DNA from: Candidatus Nanopusillus sp.
Lineage (GTDB): Archaea > Nanobdellota > Nanobdellia > Nanobdellales > Nanobdellaceae
Direction of reading: 5' to 3'
Assembly (NCBI GenBank): GCA_046536775.1
Contig: JAWDMD010000005.1
Coordinates: 1 to 24,389 of the forward strand
DNA: 24,389 nucleotides
Numbering within the stretch: position 1 is the first letter of the stretch; every line of letters starts with the position of its first letter. This document shows, piece after piece, positions 915 through 24,389 of the stretch. The position numbers and the translations under genes are program-made. The notes beneath the pieces were generated by a model. It saw only the letters and a list, made by a program, of their open reading frames with translations, had not been told where the DNA came from and did not search any database.

Positions 915-2204
915 TTAAAAATATACCAAGGGGATATATTTTATTTTACCATTATTTATAATTCTTTCTCCCCAGTAATTTTTTGTAACAACTATTGAAA
1001 ATCTACTATTATAATTCCTTATAAAATAATATAGACTTCTAGTTAATATATCTCTTTTTATATTCGAAAATTTAACTTCTGTTGGTATTATTTCCTTCCC
1101 TTCAAATATAAAATCTACTTCTGCTTTATTTTTTGTCCTCCAAAAATTAATCTTCCCATACTGATATAATTCATTTAATATAAAATTCTCTATAAGAGTT
1201 CCAGAATCATTTCTAATTTCTATATCATTAAAATTATTTATTAAATAATTTCTTAATCCTGTATCTATAAAGTATATTTTATTTTCTTTCTTTAATTCCG
1301 TAACTAAATTTTTATGAAATGGTCTTATTCTTCTTATAATATATGTTTGCTCTAAAATATCTAATAGATCTATAATTTCTTTAAAATAGCTATTTATCTC
1401 ATTTGCTAATTGTGTTATATTTATTAGAGAACCATTTAAAGATGCTAATGCTGTAATTAATCTTCTAAATTTAATAGTATCTCTTATATTTAAAAAAGAA
1501 ACAACATCCTTATCTAAATATGTATTTACAAGATTTTTCAATAAAAATATTTTTTCTTTTTCACTTTCAGCTGTTACTATAGCGGGATATCCACCAAACT
1601 TTATATATTCATTTAAATACTTTAATAAGTCATTAATGTATATATCTACATCTTTTTTAATTTCAAAATCACTACTATTCATCAAGAGATTTATTACCTT
1701 TTCATTCCATTCTTTATAGATTCTAGCAATTTTTTGATCATTATATAATAAAAATTCATAAAAATTTAAAGGATATAATTCAAATTCTAATAATCTACCA
1801 ACTAGATATCTTGCAGTTTCATTTTTTAACTCTAATGAAGAGGATCCCGTTATAATAATTTTTATATTTTCAAAAAGATCATATATTAATTTTAGTTTTT
1901 TTCCTAAATCTTTACAATATTGGGCTTCATCTATTAAAAAATAATATCTTTTACTATCGGTTATATATTTTCTTATAAAATCTTTTGGATTTTCTGAAAA
2001 CTTATATAGAATTTCATTATCCTCGAAGGTTAAGTAAATAATGTGATCTTCATCAATATTTTTTTCATTTATTAGAAAATCTTTCAACATTTTCAATAAT
2101 GTTGTCTTTCCAGATTGCCTTGGTCCTTTAATTGATATAATTTCTCTTCTATCAATATACCTTATAATCTCATTTAATAATGCCCTAGGTATGTATTCCA
2201 TCAT
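915..2204 (-). CDS. AAA+ ATPase of the archaeal COG1373 type (AAA_14 + DUF4143 architecture)
   Basis: Walker A is IKGPRQSGKTTLL and Walker B is YYFLIDEAQY. The 429-aa length and the C-terminal region ending ...NFWRTKNKAEVDFIFEGKEIIPTEVKF are typical of DUF4143, a PD-(D/E)XK-like EVD...E-V-K tail. Confidence 0.8.
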   Translation of the reverse strand: MMEYIPRALLNEIIRYIDRREIISIKGPRQSGKTTLLKMLKDFLINEKNIDEDHIIYLTFEDNEILYKFSENPKDFIRKYITDSKRYYFLIDEAQYCKDLGKKLKLIYDLFENIKIIITGSSSLELKNETARYLVGRLLEFELYPLNFYEFLLYNDQKIARIYKEWNEKVINLLMNSSDFEIKKDVDIYINDLLKYLNEYIKFGGYPAIVTAESEKEKIFLLKNLVNTYLDKDVVSFLNIRDTIKFRRLITALASLNGSLINITQLANEINSYFKEIIDLLDILEQTYIIRRIRPFHKNLVTELKKENKIYFIDTGLRNYLINNFNDIEIRNDSGTLIENFILNELYQYGKINFWRTKNKAEVDFIFEGKEIIPTEVKFSNIKRDILTRSLYYFIRNYNSRFSIVVTKNYWGERIINNGKIKYIPLVYF

Positions 2205-14875: not shown

Positions 14876-15750
14876 TTATAAATCTCTATTATCTACTAAT
14901 TTTGAAGACTCGATTAATTCATTTAAGCTATTTAAATATTTTTCTACTATTTTTGGGTTATATCTTACTCTAAAACCAATTTTAAAGTAATATAAATATT
15001 TATTGTTTATATATGTGGTTTCTACCCTTTCTTCTAAATTTAAATTATAGGCATAATATCCATTTCCGTAAGTTTTAATTATATTATGATTATTTTTTAT
15101 TATTTTTTGTGCATTATATAAATTTTTTGTACCTTCAGCATAAAAAATAAGTATTCCACGAAGGTCTCTTTTTTTAGGATTTCTAATTAGGCCAAGTTTT
15201 ATTGTATTTTCTAATAAATATCGATATGATGATAATTGATCTGAACTTGTTTGTATTCTATTGAGAACTTTTTTAATAAGATTTTCGTCCTTTTTTGATC
15301 CTGGCCAATTATAGAAGTCATCAAGATTAAAAGATTTTACTTCAAGAATTTTCACTTTATCATATTCAAAAATTAAGCCATCAGGTTTTCCAACTATTAA
15401 TATAGGATTTAAATTAGTAGGGTATTCAACAGATATTAAATACCCTTGGCTTGATTTTGTCTTTGATCGTATTATATCCTCAAGAGATTCTGCAATTTCT
15501 TTATTTTTTCCTTTCCCTTGGATATTTTCGAATATTTTATAACCATTTTTTCATTAGTTCTTTTAATAAGAGAAACTGCAGCTATTGTAGGTATATTTCC
15601 ATATTTTGCTCTTAAATCTTTTAAAAAATCTTTTAATCTTTTTTTATATAAATTATATTCATTGTAATCATGTTCATTTTGGTTGTTTATTTCCATATTT
15701 ATTCTTTCTATCAAATCATCTATTGTTGCCACTTTATAGTAATTATTCAT
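14876..15750 (-). pseudogene. PD-(D/E)XK nuclease-like gene split by a 1-nt frame change at an A6 run (two track ORFs are one gene)
   Basis: ORF 14876-15355 starts at GTG, but its frame stays open upstream to 15550. That overlaps ORF 15472-15750, whose frame differs by one. Joining the two at the homopolymer at 15546-15551 (A6 on the minus strand) gives ...LIKRTNEK/KNGYKIFENIQGKGKNKEIAESLEDIIRSKTKSSQGYLISVEYPTNLNPILIVGKPDGLIFEYDKVKILEVKSFN... This contains E...PD-x(13)-E-V-K, the PD-(D/E)XK core. Confidence 0.55.
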
Positions 15751-19045: not shown

Positions 19046-19930
19046 TTAAGAGCTAATATATTTCCATGATAGGATTATACCAATTCCAGATAGAGCTATA
19101 GCAAACACAGAGAGATATATAAAATCTATTGCTAGGTTTGTTTGTATACCAAGTAGCATTCCCCTTATTACTGCATTTGAATAAGTTAATGGATTTATCT
19201 CAGCAATTGGTTTTAACCAGGAAGGCATTGAATTTATGGGATAAAATGCATTACTGGTAAATAGTAATGGCAGATTAAGTAAGTTCATAACCGCCATTTG
19301 AGATTCCCATGAGCTTGCCCTAATGGCTATTACCAAGAATAGAGAAGAAAGTCCAAAGGACATTAGGAATAAAGCGGCATAAGCTCCAAGAAAGTCAAAG
19401 ATATTTATCCCTGGATAAAAAGACATCCCTAACAATACTGCTACAACTAATACAATAGTAGCTTGTACTAATGATCTAATCATTGAAGACAACACTTTGC
19501 TTATGATTATGTTACCCCTTGATATTGGAGTCGTTAAAAGTCTATCCAATACTCCCAACCTTCTATCCCATACTATTGACATACCACTTTGCATTGAAGT
19601 AAATAATACTATAAATGATAACATTCCTGCAGCTAGGTAAGAAAAGTAATCTGTTGTACCAAAGGTTTGTTTCAATATTTCCTGTCCGATCTGGTCAATT
19701 ATACTTTTAGGTATATTCAACCCAGGTATTGAAAGAGCTGTACCAGAGAAAAGACTCTGTAAACTCATAGCCTTCCCAAATAGTGCTATCCAGAAGATTG
19801 GTTGTATAATAGATAAAAGAAGAATTACTGGAGCCTTATACCACTTCTTTAATTCTCTGTTTGTTAAAGTCCATAAACCATGAAAAGGAGACCTATCTAC
19901 TTCCTCTCTCTTTTGTATTTCTTCAACCAT
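19046..19930 (-). CDS. ABC-2 type transporter permease (DrrB-like)
   Basis: 294 aa with about six TM helices. It sits 2 nt downstream of the ATPase gene. The N-terminal WTLTNRELKKWYKAP and late INPLTY motifs are typical of ABC-2 permeases. Confidence 0.85.
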   Translation of the reverse strand: MVEEIQKREEVDRSPFHGLWTLTNRELKKWYKAPVILLLSIIQPIFWIALFGKAMSLQSLFSGTALSIPGLNIPKSIIDQIGQEILKQTFGTTDYFSYLAAGMLSFIVLFTSMQSGMSIVWDRRLGVLDRLLTTPISRGNIIISKVLSSMIRSLVQATIVLVVAVLLGMSFYPGINIFDFLGAYAALFLMSFGLSSLFLVIAIRASSWESQMAVMNLLNLPLLFTSNAFYPINSMPSWLKPIAEINPLTYSNAVIRGMLLGIQTNLAIDFIYLSVFAIALSGIGIILSWKYISS

Positions 19931-19932
19931 GT

Positions 19933-20928
19933 TTATCCCCTAGCTCTTCTTAGAGTTCTTCTCATTGCAAATGCCTCCCTTGAATCACTCTCCTCATCTC
20001 TCATTTTTCTACCCGTGTACTCCATATAGACCTCATCCATTGTAGGCTCTGTTATTGACATTCTAGATACTTTAACTCCATTCTTTATTAATCTTTCAAG
20101 AATTTGCGGGGCCATCTCTTCTCCGTTCTTCACTTTTATCCTTAGCATATTATCGACTTTCTTTATATCTAATATACCATCAAGATTTTGTAATAATTTC
20201 ATAGCTTCCTCATCACTCGTAGTACTTAGAGTAACTACATCACCACCTATACTTTCCTTTAGCTCTTTAGGTGATCCTATAGCAAGTATCTTACCATGGT
20301 CAATAATAGCTATTCTATCAGCGTAAAGGTCAGCTTCCTCTAAGTAGTGGGTGGTAACAAAAATGGTCATACCATACTCCTTCTTAAGCTTCATAATGTA
20401 GTTCCAAATTGCACTTCTAGTCTGAGCATCTAGACCTATGGTAGGTTCATCTAAGAACAGAACTTTGGGTCTACTAATCAAAGACATCGCTATTTCCAAC
20501 CTTCTCCTCATTCCTCCACTATATGTTTGTACTTTTCTGTTCATTGCCTGGGTTAATTCAACCATATCGAGTAATTCCTTAGCTCTTTCTTTAGCTAAAT
20601 CCTTTCTTATACCATAAAGCCCAGCCATCAACATCACATTCTCCCAACCTGTCAAGTCTTCATCAGCAGTGAATTCTTGAGGTACTACTCCAATAGAGCT
20701 CCTTACTTTTGCTGGATCTTTAATTATATCATATCCATTAACTATAGCAGTTCCTTCTGTAGGCTTCAATACTGTAGTTAGCATTTTTATAGTAGTTGAT
20801 TTTCCTGCCCCATTAGGTCCTAGGAAACCAAATATTTCTCCTTCTTTAACTTCAAAATTTATATGGTCGACTGCTATAAACTTACCAAAAGCTTTAGTAA
20901 GGTTTATTGCCTTTATTGCCTCAACCAC
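19933..20928 (-). CDS. ABC transporter ATP-binding protein (DrrA/ABC-2 exporter subfamily)
   Basis: Walker A is GPNGAGKST, the Q-loop is VPQE, the signature is YSGGMRRRL, Walker B is VLFLDEPTIGLD and the H-loop is TTHYLEEA. A C-terminal ~100-aa DrrA-type domain is present. The start is GTG at 20928, and the next upstream in-frame codon but one is a stop. Confidence 0.95.
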   Translation of the reverse strand: MVEAIKAINLTKAFGKFIAVDHINFEVKEGEIFGFLGPNGAGKSTTIKMLTTVLKPTEGTAIVNGYDIIKDPAKVRSSIGVVPQEFTADEDLTGWENVMLMAGLYGIRKDLAKERAKELLDMVELTQAMNRKVQTYSGGMRRRLEIAMSLISRPKVLFLDEPTIGLDAQTRSAIWNYIMKLKKEYGMTIFVTTHYLEEADLYADRIAIIDHGKILAIGSPKELKESIGGDVVTLSTTSDEEAMKLLQNLDGILDIKKVDNMLRIKVKNGEEMAPQILERLIKNGVKVSRMSITEPTMDEVYMEYTGRKMRDEESDSREAFAMRRTLRRARG

Positions 20929-21238
20929 TTTTTATTATATCTCGGATTTTCCTTAATGCCTTTTCTTTCTCACTTTCAAGATATAAGATTATATTACTCT
21001 CTAGAGATGTAGAAAAAGAAAATATGGTGTATTTATCAAAGATCTTGATTGCATTTACGTATTTAAGTATATATAATGTTGGTTTTACTTTGAATAATAC
21101 ATAGTTTTGAATGTTTCCCTTGAAGAAATTGATTATACTCATATTATTAGATACTCTCTTGTAATAATTAACCACTTGATCATAATAGTAATTAAGAGCA
21201 TGAACTGAGTCTGATCCTTTTTCCATTCTATACTGCAT
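20921..21238 (-). CDS. Hypothetical small protein, translationally coupled to the ABC ATPase
   Basis: 105 aa, starting at ATG 21238. Its TGA overlaps the ATPase GTG start by 8 nt. G+C is intermediate (18-20 of 60 in sampled lines). No motif was recognised; a divergent wHTH regulator is possible but unsupported. Confidence 0.4.
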   Translation of the reverse strand: MQYRMEKGSDSVHALNYYYDQVVNYYKRVSNNMSIINFFKGNIQNYVLFKVKPTLYILKYVNAIKIFDKYTIFSFSTSLESNIILYLESEKEKALRKIRDIIKSG

Positions 21239-21600
21239 AGCTATATTTATCTTTTGATAACTATAAAAAGATTTCTATAAAAGAGTGATTTACCCATTTA
21301 ATTTAGTTATTATCCTAAAGAATGCAATATATTATTAAACAAAATCGATACTTTTCCTATTTGGTAGCACATTATATATATGAACAAAAAGATAAAAATA
21401 ATTATATGAAAGAATATTAGAGAATATTAATAAAGTAATGGGCGAAGTATTAAAATCATTATTGTAAATAAAAGATTTAATTAAGAGGATATTTGAAATA
21501 CTAAATGCATATGATAATCTATCATTCAAAGATTTTAATGTTTCAATGAGAATAGATGCTCTATTAAAGTTTAAAAATCCTTTTTATATAGATTTCCATA

Positions 21601-22431
21601 ATGACTACTGAGTCAGAAGAAATACGCGAATTATTAAATTTTGAGTTAAGAATAGGAAAAATTAATGAAAAAGAGTTTAAACTTTTAGAAGAAATTATAA
21701 CTCGATATTATAAAGATTGTAAAAACAGAATAGAAAGTACATATCTTTTTGTCGGAGGATTGATTGATTTGATAACACTTGGATATAATAAAGAAGATAT
21801 ATCTACAATATTAAATGAAATTTTAAATTTAGGAACAAATGAAATCGATAAATTACTATTTAAAGTTTACATCCATATTTATGATAAATATGATGAAGAA
21901 TTTAAAAAATACTTTGAGAAAAAATTAGAATATATAAAAAAGATAGTTGAATCTTCCCCAAATATTGATGATATACTAGATAAATTAGATAAAATAAAAG
22001 TTTTTTCCAATAATAATGATAAAGAGTATACAGAAATAAGAAATTCGATAGAAGATATTAAAAAGTACAAACCATCATTGAACTATGTATATAATATAAT
22101 ACAAAATTGGCGGGATAGAAACTATATAGAAAAAATTAAAGATGCTGAAAGACAAATTTCTTGTACAGTAAAAAATTTAGAATATATAAAAAATAATCTA
22201 GAAAATATTGAGAAAGATCCAAAATATGCTAAGAACTTAAAGGATATATTGAATATAAAAAGAGAATTAGATAATTACTATGATGGATTATTAAAAATTT
22301 CAGAATTATTAAATACATATGAACAATCTTATATAAAATTCAAAGAAGAATATTTGTCAAAATTACTGCTTGAAGGTTTAGATTATATAAAAAAGTATAC
22401 AAATATTAATTCAAATAAAGAAAACATATAA
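21601..22431 (+). CDS. Hypothetical all-helical protein (276 aa)
   Basis: A long uninterrupted ORF with an in-frame TAG 12 nt upstream of the ATG. It is K/E/N/I-rich, predicted helical or coiled coil, and has no recognisable catalytic motif. It lies 56 nt upstream of the HExxH gene on the same strand. Confidence 0.5.
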   Translation: MTTESEEIRELLNFELRIGKINEKEFKLLEEIITRYYKDCKNRIESTYLFVGGLIDLITLGYNKEDISTILNEILNLGTNEIDKLLFKVYIHIYDKYDEEFKKYFEKKLEYIKKIVESSPNIDDILDKLDKIKVFSNNNDKEYTEIRNSIEDIKKYKPSLNYVYNIIQNWRDRNYIEKIKDAERQISCTVKNLEYIKNNLENIEKDPKYAKNLKDILNIKRELDNYYDGLLKISELLNTYEQSYIKFKEEYLSKLLLEGLDYIKKYTNINSNKENI

Positions 22432-22487
22432 GTTTTACGTAAAAAACATTTATTTTTTTAAAGCTTTACTACTAATAAATAGTAAAT

Positions 22488-23468
22488 ATGAATAAGTTAT
22501 ACGAAGAATATAAATGGTCAGAATTAGTAAAAAATGAAGTAGAAAGACAGGGATATAATATAAAGGAGGGTTCTTATTTAGATAAGCTCTTAAAAATTGC
22601 CAATAATGATGAAAAAAGAAATCCAAGAGTATATGTAATTGATCGTTCTTTGCTTAGAGAAATTATAAAATGTGTTTTAACTGGAGAGTATAAAATACAA
22701 GATCAACAAGCTCAATTAAAATACTGCACTAATAAATATGTTTCTGAATTACCTATAGATGTTAAAAACACTATAAATGGAAGGGTTATTTCTAGAGAAG
22801 ATATACCACAAAAGGATTTTTTAGACGACATATTAAAAAAAGGAGCAAATTTGGATGAAATTATAGATCTATATACACTAAACATAGCTACAGGGCAGGG
22901 ATCCGTTCCAAATATATCAAATATTCCAACAATAATATTAATAAATGATGATTTATCTTCTCAATATGGAGTTCTAGCTCCAACAGCTATACATGAATTT
23001 ATACATTTAGCAAATTTAGACAGTCCTAGGTTTCCTGGCTATAAAGATTTATGGTATATGAAATCTAATTATATTATCACTATTCCTAGTAGACTAGATG
23101 AGAAAAATATAAACTTATATAAGATAATCAATGAACATATAAAACCTTATAGTCCTTTTTATAGAGAATATGAAAATATAGAAATCAAAATTGATGAATT
23201 TATAACAGAATTAACAACGATACGTATATTAGAAAATGCAAATATGAAAGATCTATATCTAAACAGAAAAAAATTTATAGAAGAAATGTTTAATCAAATT
23301 ATAGGAAAGAAAAAAGAAGTAGGGATTAGTAAAATTCCTAGAGAAGACTATTTAATTTCTTATTTAAAAGCATATGAACTATTAGAAAAGAGGGAGATAT
23401 CAAAAAATATTATTGAAACTATAGATGAAGTATTAGAATCATATATTGAAGATAAATTGAAAAGTTAA
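22488..23468 (+). CDS. Hypothetical protein with HExxH zinc-metallopeptidase motif (context resembles ImmA/IrrE, M78-like)
   Basis: TIILINDDLSSQYGVLAPTAIHEFIHLANLD places an HEFIH motif after a hydrophobic strand and an 'I-x-I-N-x-x-L' segment, as in COG2856 proteases (h-I-N-x-x-L...R-F-T-h-A-HE-h-G-H). The third metal ligand was not identified. 326 aa. Confidence 0.5.
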   Translation: MNKLYEEYKWSELVKNEVERQGYNIKEGSYLDKLLKIANNDEKRNPRVYVIDRSLLREIIKCVLTGEYKIQDQQAQLKYCTNKYVSELPIDVKNTINGRVISREDIPQKDFLDDILKKGANLDEIIDLYTLNIATGQGSVPNISNIPTIILINDDLSSQYGVLAPTAIHEFIHLANLDSPRFPGYKDLWYMKSNYIITIPSRLDEKNINLYKIINEHIKPYSPFYREYENIEIKIDEFITELTTIRILENANMKDLYLNRKKFIEEMFNQIIGKKKEVGISKIPREDYLISYLKAYELLEKREISKNIIETIDEVLESYIEDKLKS

Positions 23469-23730
23469 GAAATTTTTATAAAATTTTTAATTAAATTATG
23501 ACAATTAAAAATTAAGGAAGCAAAGAGAATTATTTTATATTCATTCGATGATAAATATAAAAAGATTCTTTCTTTTTATGTATAAAACTATATAAATATT
23601 TGAAAGTAATTTTAAATATAACTATTATAGCTTTAGATTTTAATATAAATTTTATTACTGATTTATATCTTTTAGTTAATTTGAATGAAATCTTTCATTA
23701 AAAAATATAATAAAATAATTATATAGTTAG

Positions 23731-24389
23731 CTATCTACTCATCTTTTCTAATTTTTTCTTAACATTAATAAGAATCCACTTATAATATGTACTTTCATGT
23801 GAAAAATAATCACACCATGCTCCTATTTTTCCTATATTATCTTTAATGCAGAATAATCTATATGCAAGAATCGTCGATAAATGACTTGATTTATCAAATT
23901 TTTTTATTTCTTCAATAGCATCTAATATTTTTGTAATTAATTTTCTTTTCCTTCCATATTTTTTAACTATATGGTCCAAAAGTTTTATCAGATAATCCAA
24001 AGTTAAACTATATTTACTTATTATGCCTTTATATATTTCTTCCAATATTTTAGAATTGGTTATAACTTCATAAGGGTCTCTTTTAGCTAATTCGTTTTCT
24101 AAATATTCTAAATCTTTTTCAGACTTTATCAATTTATATAATCTAAAAGAAACAAATTGAGGATAATATTTTAGTATATTTGGGTATTTTGTAAACAAAT
24201 CTCTTCCCATTAAATTTATAACATTATATAATTTATCATAATCTTCGGATTTAATTTTTTTATTACTTGTATGAATTATTATATATCTAACAATTCTTCC
24301 TCCTTTATTTATTAGTTGATTAAATATTTCTAATTTTATTTCTTGATCTATTTTTTCATTAAAATATATATTTTCAAAGTACTTTGTTA
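23731..24389 (-). CDS. Hypothetical protein, 5'-truncated by the window edge (at least 219 aa)
   Basis: The track ORF starts at Met 24210, but the same frame is open for all 59 upstream codons to the window end. Those codons read TKYFENIYFNEKIDQEIKLEIFNQLINKGGRIVRYIIIHTSNKKIKSEDYDKLYNVINL-MGRDLF... The gene therefore very likely begins beyond 24389. No family was recognised. Confidence 0.5.
   Translation of the reverse strand, partial: TKYFENIYFNEKIDQEIKLEIFNQLINKGGRIVRYIIIHTSNKKIKSEDYDKLYNVINLMGRDLFTKYPNILKYYPQFVSFRLYKLIKSEKDLEYLENELAKRDPYEVITNSKILEEIYKGIISKYSLTLDYLIKLLDHIVKKYGRKRKLITKILDAIEEIKKFDKSSHLSTILAYRLFCIKDNIGKIGAWCDYFSHESTYYKWILINVKKKLEKMSR

Follow-up and report, generated by a model that had tools for sequence, protein, structure and literature searches.

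Positions 21601 to 24389 of a 24,389-nucleotide stretch of Candidatus Nanopusillus sp. DNA (contig JAWDMD010000005.1; the whole stretch is hereafter called the window) raise the question of whether three neighbouring orphan genes form a single system. A preliminary description had grouped a gene for a protein of 276 amino acids (aa), hereafter w276, a gene for a 326-aa protein with an HExxH motif, and a convergent gene that runs off the window into one candidate system, in which the HExxH protein would be a protease of the ImmA/IrrE type and w276 its substrate or sensor partner. The three genes are not conserved together as one system, since a linkage test across 45 distinct related loci came out negative. 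The block is read here, with moderate confidence, not as an ImmA-type module but as the site of a new putative zincin family in a flexible genomic island, where the HExxH gene evolves fast and is likely involved in genetic conflict.

The window is archaeal and very AT-rich (about 22 % GC). Its proteins include ribosomal protein S3Ae, leucyl-tRNA synthetase (LeuRS), triosephosphate isomerase (TIM) and phosphoglucose isomerase (PGI), and homologues of its genes carry the names Candidatus Nanopusillus or Nanobsidianus. The features of the block and its surroundings are as follows.

20921 to 21238, minus strand: w105, an orphan open reading frame (ORF) of 105 aa at the left edge of the island, with an 8-nt overlap with the start of the ABC ATPase gene
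21322 to 21429, plus strand: relic (pseudogene fragment) of a type-C HExxH paralog, detected by blastn and blastx inside the 362-bp spacer
21601 to 22431, plus strand: w276, an ORF for a soluble orphan protein of 276 aa with homologues confined to the Nanopusillus/Nanobsidianus clade
22453 to 22487, plus strand: promoter- or operator-like element of the HExxH gene, recognised by conservation and of presumed function
22488 to 23468, plus strand: gene of the 326-aa HExxH protein, a putative gluzincin-type zinc hydrolase (motif, conservation and structure model)
22992 to 23006, plus strand: HEFIH (H169, E170, H173), within the 326-aa gene
23208 to 23210, plus strand: E241, candidate third ligand, within the 326-aa gene
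23469 to 23730, no strand: convergent spacer of 262 bp, part of the divergent HExxH 'cassette', no RNA gene detected
23731 to 24389, minus strand: C-terminal 219 codons of c476, the right island boundary, a conserved 476-aa orphan gene in relatives

A recheck of the ORFs returned the three reading frames, the HEFIH motif and the spacer lengths as first described, with spacers of 362 bp (21239-21600), 56 nt (22432-22487) and 262 bp (23469-23730), and the peptide IILINDDLSSQYGVLAPTAIHEFIHL was confirmed in the 326-aa protein. The minus-strand frame is open from 23731 to the end of the window (219 codons; the first internal ATG would yield 159 aa). This convergent frame had been described as an orphan running off the window; the open frame stands, and its orphan status is revised, as it represents the C-terminal 46 % of the 476-aa gene c476, 85-97 % identical to the full-length genes of relatives and complete in related contigs at 88-89 %. 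The length of the 362-bp spacer likewise stands, the spacer itself being a divergent intergenic region bounded on its left by the additional ORF w105. That the three genes are uncharacterised was confirmed, as none of their products had a match over threshold in Pfam, NCBIfam, PHROGs or PADLOC, or any match among PDB sequences and viral collections. Scans of all members of the HExxH and w276 families against the same four resources gave sub-threshold, inconsistent matches only, and sequence-profile searches of the PDB with the HExxH family, the w276 family and c476 gave nothing meaningful.

The 326-aa protein is a member of a small, undescribed family that is restricted to hot-spring Nanoarchaeota (Nanopusillus/Nanobsidianus). 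Among 5.8 billion proteins a word-indexed search recovered 63 homologues. None of them is annotated, all match over the full length at 39 % identity or more, and their sources are hot-spring metagenomes and Nanopusillus metagenome-assembled genomes (MAGs). A profile run exhaustively against 1.84 billion cluster representatives yielded only 12 clusters (50 % identity), two of which are remote members with 25-28 % identity. Among the 185,579 species genomes of GTDB only three carry the family, namely two Nanopusillus species and Nanobsidianus stetteri. No published description of the family or of the island was found in a literature search, and no relatives were found in phage records or on IMG/VR contigs, so a viral or mobile origin is unsupported. 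In an alignment of 65 sequences, reaching down to 28 % identity, H169, E170 and E241 are invariant and H173 is conserved in more than 90 %, which bears out the conservation of the HExxH residues expected in the preliminary description; because of this conservation the motif is very likely functional. Weak, sub-threshold Pfam matches in the family were to the zincin family MPTase-PolyVal (4 members) and to M61 (2 members). Matches to NurA in 24 members (best E 7.8e-4) were dropped, as they were not reproduced in the representatives examined.

The remote members (loci L016 and L017, on contigs of 26 % GC) have no c476 nearby, and one of them again adjoins a phosphodiesterase gene. Both sit amid small unrelated proteins that also bear HExxH or HExxxH motifs, of 134 aa (with a weak DUF6782 match), 310 aa and 324 aa (L016, 1830-2234 and 2513-3445; L017, 3954-4928). 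The 134-aa and 310-aa proteins of L016 and the 324-aa protein of L017 were rejected as hidden family homologues, since hhalign found no homology beyond the motif.

A first AlphaFold2 (AF2) model of the 326-aa protein, from a 28-sequence alignment, reached a mean local confidence (pLDDT) of 58, with values below 50 in the HExxH region, and its Foldseek search was meaningless. The second model (m91cfc9c9423f), from the 65-sequence alignment, reached pLDDT 83.6 and a predicted TM-score (pTM) of 0.88. It predicts an N-terminal alpha/beta domain (residues 1-95), helices at 109-131 and strands at 136-138 and 148-153, followed by the HExxH motif (H169-H173) on a helix (163-175) that comes after the strands of the beta-hairpin. 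A disordered insertion specific to type-A alleles (177-195), a helix with E241 (235-250) and a C-terminal helical bundle (254-325) complete the chain, and the protein has no transmembrane (TM) segment and no signal-like N-terminus. The invariant E241, on the predicted helix 235-250, is a candidate third zinc ligand. The order of elements, from beta-hairpin to HExxH helix to distal Glu helix, looks like a minimal gluzincin-like core. As in gluzincins and other zincins, the HExxH helix would be preceded by a strand able to act as substrate-binding edge, and near-fixed H169, E170, H173 and E241 come with the predicted order of strand or strands, active-site helix and Glu helix; unlike in these, the family has no Foldseek match to solved or viral zincins and no threshold match in Pfam or NCBIfam.

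The 56-nt gap before the HExxH gene appears to hold a control region. A TATA-like run of T and A (22453-22463, with TTTTAAA about 30 nt upstream of the ATG) precedes an inverted repeat, TTTACTA/TAGTAAA (22465-22471 and 22480-22486), that abuts the ATG. The 35 nt upstream of the gene are conserved across allele types with only about 42 % protein identity, and are more conserved than the coding sequence. The 20-mer TTTACTACTAWNRWATAGTA turned up in 38 of 63 loci, a single time in each and invariably right in front of the HExxH gene, with one occurrence in the window against 0.05 expected; the palindrome is perfect in L004 (10-nt arms, TACTACTATA/TATAGTAGTA) and in L015 (9 nt). A TATA-like box and a palindrome adjoin the start codon in all c476-proximal HExxH genes (the corresponding site in L001-L062). 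As both are conserved at the HExxH start across alleles, they argue that the gene is transcribed as a unit of its own, regulated and probably leaderless, from a promoter-like element, and the palindrome may be the operator for a dimeric regulator of a leaderless transcript. A scan for bacterial promoters and terminators was uninformative in this AT-rich archaeal sequence.

The surroundings of the gene were compared among 60 related loci, 45 of them distinct, which were annotated by tblastn with family queries and include 23 islands complete from border to border. On the left the island is bounded by a GNAT gene, in some loci together with a GC-richer ABC-2 transporter operon, and on the right by c476, followed by CTP synthase or serpin. 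Between them lie a HEPN-MNT toxin-antitoxin pair, a PF01663 phosphodiesterase, orphans of 195 aa (p195) and 328 aa (p328), w276 and one to three HExxH paralogs in varying combination, giving at least seven distinct architectures between the GNAT/ABC flank and c476. Identities of the flanks are to the window, and (-) marks the opposite strand.

Window: w105, w276, HExxH (type A)
L015, L045 and L047 (flanks 97-99 %): w105, w276, phosphodiesterase (-), HExxH (type B)
L008 (flanks 98 %): w105, w276, phosphodiesterase (-), MNT-HEPN (-), no HExxH
L005-type (flanks about 93 %): w276, MNT-HEPN (-), p195, HExxH (type A)
L001 and L004 (flanks about 92 %): MNT-HEPN (-), HExxH (type B), no w276
L012 and L053: HExxH (type C), w276, phosphodiesterase (-), p328, MNT-HEPN (-), HExxH (type D)
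L040 and L044: tandem HExxH copies

The island is thus flexible, its content differing even between near-identical strains. At least one HExxH copy was kept in 22 of the 23 complete islands, and the HEPN-MNT pairs that neighbour HExxH genes in relatives are absent from the island of the window. Replacement-type flexible genomic islands are known from prokaryotic populations, as in Alteromonas and Salinibacter (e.g. PMC4033161), and the present island resembles them in its fixed site between conserved flanks, its sharp identity breakpoints with evident recombination, and in content and deeply divergent alleles that vary among strains with 98 % identical flanks. It differs in being tiny (about 2-7 kb, in the reduced genome of roughly 0.6 Mb of an ectosymbiont) and in coding for cytoplasmic orphans and a toxin-antitoxin pair, whereas the classical islands carry genes for surface glycosylation or O-antigen.

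Identity along the block is mosaic. The window is 97.8 % identical to L015 up to position 22424, 64-70 % identical over 22456-23700, i.e. the HExxH gene and the spacer, and 95 % identical from 23701, and the reverse pattern was seen with L005 (w276 77 %, 22442-24389 91 %). Strains with 98 % identical flanks thus have HExxH alleles that are only about 42 % identical; the allele type does not track the flanks, and allele type and w276 lineage assort independently. Recombination within the gene is also apparent, as the N-terminal 95 aa have a history separate from the rest of the protein (N 67 %/M 98 % in L021, N 75 %/M 40 % in L033). At the w276/HExxH junction the window retains some 20 nt of the L005-like sequence that follows w276, fused at a short TTTA(T) microhomology to the promoter region of the HExxH gene. 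The junction (22424-22488) may be that of a natural recombinant, in which a switch from an L015-like to an L005-like lineage was combined with a deletion of the intervening genes.

The ratio of nonsynonymous to synonymous substitution rates (dN/dS; pairwise NG86) was 0.05-0.14 for the ABC genes, 0.25-0.46 for c476, 0.55-0.73 for w276 and 0.37-0.77 for the HExxH gene, and the genome-wide ratio of nonsynonymous to synonymous polymorphism (pN/pS) of these archaea is 0.159 (PMC6142677). Within type-A HExxH genes the C-terminal 66 aa had a dN/dS of 0.19, and local windows exceeded 1 at residues 61-90, 121-165 and 196-255. Copies are also gained and lost: the gene is frameshifted in L057, L058/59 and L061, present in tandem in L040 and L044 and lost altogether in L008.

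A further copy was lost in the window itself. In blastn, positions 21320-21459 align at 70.6 % with the 3' end of the type-C HExxH gene that is intact in L012, and blastx of the 362-bp spacer yielded IIKQNRYFSYLVAHYIYEQKDKNNYMKE, which matches the conserved C-terminal motif of the family, IPREDRILAYLIGYYIFEQRDKND. An intact type-C copy is found at the syntenic position upstream of w276 in L011, L012 and L053, all of which have no ABC operon; the operon probably arrived by insertion, destroying the type-C copy. The ABC-2 transporter operon occupies 19046-20928 of the window, with a GC content of 0.34-0.36, and is absent from L011, L012, L053 and L058, where GNAT directly precedes the island genes. 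The ORF w105 that overlaps it is 94-96 % identical in same-species contigs (L008, L015), and in L005-type genomes only its N-terminal 55 aa can be aligned (40 %); it has no family match in Pfam, NCBIfam, PHROGs or PADLOC.

Taken in the reading favoured here, the block of the window would be a local, deletion-collapsed state of a flexible Nanopusillus/Nanobsidianus island. The 326-aa gene would be transcribed alone, from its own TATA-like box and palindrome. Its product would be soluble in the cytoplasm and made up of three parts, the alpha/beta domain at the N-terminus, a zincin-like catalytic core in the middle and the helical bundle at the C-terminus, and most likely would act as a zinc-dependent hydrolase and probably as a peptidase. 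The catalytic residues are fixed, while rapid change through substitution, intragenic recombination, allele replacement, duplication and loss affects both the allele as a whole and those segments that line the predicted cleft. Such a pattern is not expected of a housekeeping enzyme but of a gene engaged in genetic conflict, be it with the host, a virus or a mobile element. What the comparisons show directly is the anatomy of the block, the distribution of the family, its conserved residues, the variable island content, the mosaicism and the raised dN/dS; zinc binding, hydrolase activity, the role of the promoter or operator and the part played in conflict are inferences.

Several observations weigh against this interpretation. 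The Foldseek search with the confident model gave nothing significant (best E 0.21 in PDB and 0.13 in BFVD), although whole-chain queries are insensitive to small zincin cores and the negative is therefore weak; the zincin assignment is probable, drawn as it is from the motif, from how well this is conserved and from the succession of secondary-structure elements. One natural family member, P0101, has HEYLQ in place of HExxH, so catalysis may be dispensable in some copies. No substrate is indicated, no defence-system model in PADLOC matched, and neither phage records nor IMG/VR offered a viral link. The local dN/dS values above 1 are suggestive, coming from short windows with low dS in non-independent pairs, and are noisy; the overall HExxH values of 0.4-0.8 also fit relaxed constraint without an arms race. 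Finally, the w276/HExxH junction, which is unique to the window, might conceivably be a chimera of two strains produced in assembly.

Relaxed constraint is also the basis of the alternative that survives best, that of a neutral or decaying lineage-specific family in which HExxH is kept for structural metal binding or by history. The dN/dS range, the frameshifted copies, the spacer relic, the complete loss in L008 and the HEYLQ member are all in its favour, and hypothetical proteins are generally high in the density of nonsynonymous single-nucleotide polymorphisms (nSNPs) in these archaea (PMC6142677). It is nevertheless unlikely: even members at 25-28 % identity have kept intact ORFs of about 300-336 aa in which H, E and the distal E do not vary, purifying selection on the C-terminal bundle is clear, different alleles share the promoter palindrome, and hardly any complete island of these reduced genomes is without a copy.

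A more elaborate version of the conflict hypothesis would make the HExxH family a conflict or recognition determinant specific to Nanoarchaeota. The protein would be a soluble zinc protease with the cleft segments under diversifying selection, deeply divergent classes of alleles would be maintained and exchanged by recombination among strains that live side by side, a dimeric regulator (possibly the protein's own N-terminal domain) would switch the gene by binding the palindrome at its leaderless start, and the target would be a fast-changing protein of a virus, a mobile element or the host (Acidilobus/Sulfolobales). We hold this version to be distinctly improbable.

Nanoarchaeota of the Nanopusillus type have genomes of roughly 0.6 Mb and live attached to a host archaeon, and the differences between their strains, for the most part without explanation, fall mainly in hypothetical proteins. 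The present analysis defines a concrete hotspot of such variation, a small island between fixed borders, where strains differ through duplication, loss, recombination and exchange of the gene for a putative metallohydrolase whose catalytic residues are invariant. The protein probably represents a new zincin family outside the coverage of current domain databases and structure libraries, and it would be a tractable candidate for work on symbiosis or virus defence, being soluble, with a clear active-site mutant, many natural alleles and the cultured N. acidilobi-Acidilobus system. The apparent three-gene operon would be an accident of deletion in one strain, not to be propagated as a 'system' in annotation.

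The original proposal, in which the 326-aa protein is an anti-repressor protease of the ImmA/IrrE type (Peptidase_M78, PF06114, COG2856) that cleaves or senses w276 within a novel two- or three-gene immunity or defence module, was assessed both from the protein and from the gene neighbourhood. For comparison, ten phage proteins were collected by similarity to the M78 motif and to a verified M78 protein; most of these are annotated as metalloprotease or ImmA/IrrE, and two were confirmed as Peptidase_M78 by Pfam. When the 65 members of the family were all scanned with Pfam at E<=10, Peptidase_M78 was not among the matches listed; the window protein was without a Pfam match, and there was none in NCBIfam. 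Aligned with hhalign, the family profile gave probabilities of 2.7 % and 6.4 % with the two Pfam-verified M78 proteins and 6.6 % with the 10-sequence M78 alignment (over 36 columns), the aligned part being the strand and the HExxH helix and, with one M78 protein, also the ExxxE helix. Since the probabilities are low and the alignments limited to the strand and HExxH, the likeness is generic and not specific to M78; the resemblance is at the level of a generic zincin motif, and membership is not supported.

The likenesses are nevertheless several. The 326-aa protein is soluble like ImmA/IrrE proteins, with an HExxH helix after a hydrophobic beta-strand and a conserved Glu helix some 40-70 residues downstream, a spacing that is M78-like once the type-A insertion is discounted, and its gene lies in a variable, conflict-rich genome region, in the window behind a palindromic operator-like promoter. 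The combination of HExxH and a downstream Glu ligand, present here, is however generic to gluzincins. The 326-aa protein differs in being about twice as long, with the N-terminal alpha/beta domain and the C-terminal helical bundle as extra parts. Its gene has no adjoining substrate of the XRE type with a helix-turn-helix (HTH), no integrase and no context of a virus, prophage or integrative and conjugative element (ICE), and holds a fixed chromosomal position in a nanoarchaeal island with housekeeping-type flanks. Among the neighbours in the 45 distinct loci (HEPN-MNT, p195, phosphodiesterase, HExxH copy, w276, c476) no HTH match was found with Pfam, in contrast to the verified M78 gene of phage CP51, which lies between an HTH gene and an integrase.

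The neighbourhoods speak against w276 as a cognate partner as well. The 20 homologues of the protein share 54 % identity or more and stay within the clade of the HExxH family; it has no family or PDB match and no TM segment. A PADLOC match to DruC (14 bits, E 0.0027, in a helical region) was the only one for any block protein; a match to Phage_min_cap2 (E 3.6e-4, under the cut-off) was dismissed, as no members other than near-identical ones share it, and hhalign with the w276 profile found no homology to the island proteins of 328 aa and 324 aa, which were thus rejected as w276 homologues. A gene for w276 is present in 17 of the 23 complete islands and shares 16 of these with an HExxH paralog, and in L011, L012 and L053 the two are neighbours in reverse order, type-C HExxH first, an order that the spacer relic suggests to be ancestral; both observations would suit the module. 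Direct adjacency of w276 to a downstream HExxH gene was, however, found in only one of the 45 distinct loci, the window itself. Elsewhere an opposite-strand HEPN-MNT pair or PF01663 phosphodiesterase, the 195-aa gene or a second HExxH copy intervenes, and on contigs with the closest relatives of w276 (96 % identity) the next gene is the phosphodiesterase and not an HExxH gene. HExxH genes do without w276 in six of the 23 islands, L008 keeps w276 without HExxH, and the separate conserved promoter and the independent assortment of allele type and w276 lineage point the same way. The preliminary description had itself named a lack of conserved linkage between the 276- and 326-aa genes as one outcome that would refute it, and the neighbourhood check found no such linkage across related genomes. 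Together with the hhalign result and the lack of PF06114 among the matches listed and of an HTH partner, this makes the module very improbable.

The immediate neighbours of the c476-proximal HExxH gene differ in constancy. Upstream of it lie HEPN (18 cases), p195 (11), phosphodiesterase (4), an HExxH stretch (3), GNAT (1) or w276 (1); the three HExxH cases are the tandem copies of L040 and L044 and two pieces of the one frameshifted copy of L057, the GNAT case is L011, which holds the type-C copy only, and the w276 case is the window. Downstream lies c476 in 36 of the 37 loci with context. A true functional pair of HExxH and convergent c476 (e.g. enzyme and target or inhibitor), with the rest of the island incidental, would agree with this constancy, with the clade-restricted orphan status of both and with a c476 dN/dS above that of housekeeping genes, but it too is highly doubtful, given the convergent orientation across 216-351 bp of spacer, the persistence of c476 without an adjoining HExxH gene in L008 and L011, the remote members without c476 nearby, a c476 that stays 85-97 % identical while HExxH is swapped for an allele of about 42 % and so shows no partner co-variation, and the simple explanation of the adjacency by c476 as the fixed island boundary. 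Neighbours by position, w276 and c476 are not demonstrable partners of the HExxH protein, and relaxed constraint, c476 pairing and the w276-substrate model are each less well supported than a zinc hydrolase in genetic conflict.

Beyond c476 the right flank is variable too, with a 456-aa serpin (PF00079) in L011, L012, L020, L045, L049, L053 and L056 and CTP synthase in others. In several MAGs and contigs c476 is called in at least two fragments (L001, 11302-12790; P0092/P0093/P0095/P0096, e.g. 327 + 128 aa and 121 + 343 aa), which points to frameshifts or pseudogenisation in part of the strains, or else to sequencing errors at homopolymers.

The 262-bp convergent spacer, for which the preliminary description had envisaged a small RNA in 23469-23730, is about 90 % identical among type-A loci, with indels, and the low-identity stretch against L015 spans it up to 23700. 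No Rfam match was obtained at the gathering threshold or at E<=1, none of 35 predicted pairs was compensatory in seven aligned spacers (covariation term +0.33), and folding z-scores were modest (-1.95 and -2.73). A small RNA was thus not supported, the negative covering structured RNA, and the spacer may yet give an unstructured transcript.

Two further loci lie elsewhere in the window. ORFs of 159 aa and 92 aa on the minus strand (14876-15355 and 15472-15750) correspond to a single gene of 280-288 aa in relatives (e.g. L008, 3313-4179), and the gene is therefore split by a frameshift in the window. It is hypervariable between lineages, with 40-52 % identity against about 90 % for its neighbours, and represents a second fast-evolving orphan locus. 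At 198-838 on the plus strand lies a HEPN (PF05168) gene. The 96-aa ORF after it, with which it shares 4 nt, probably codes for the MNT partner, and a DUF4143/AAA_14 ATPase gene adjoins the pair (915-2204, minus strand). This pair was missed by tblastn at 1e-6 with the island HEPN-MNT of relatives and is therefore a separate toxin-antitoxin-like locus.

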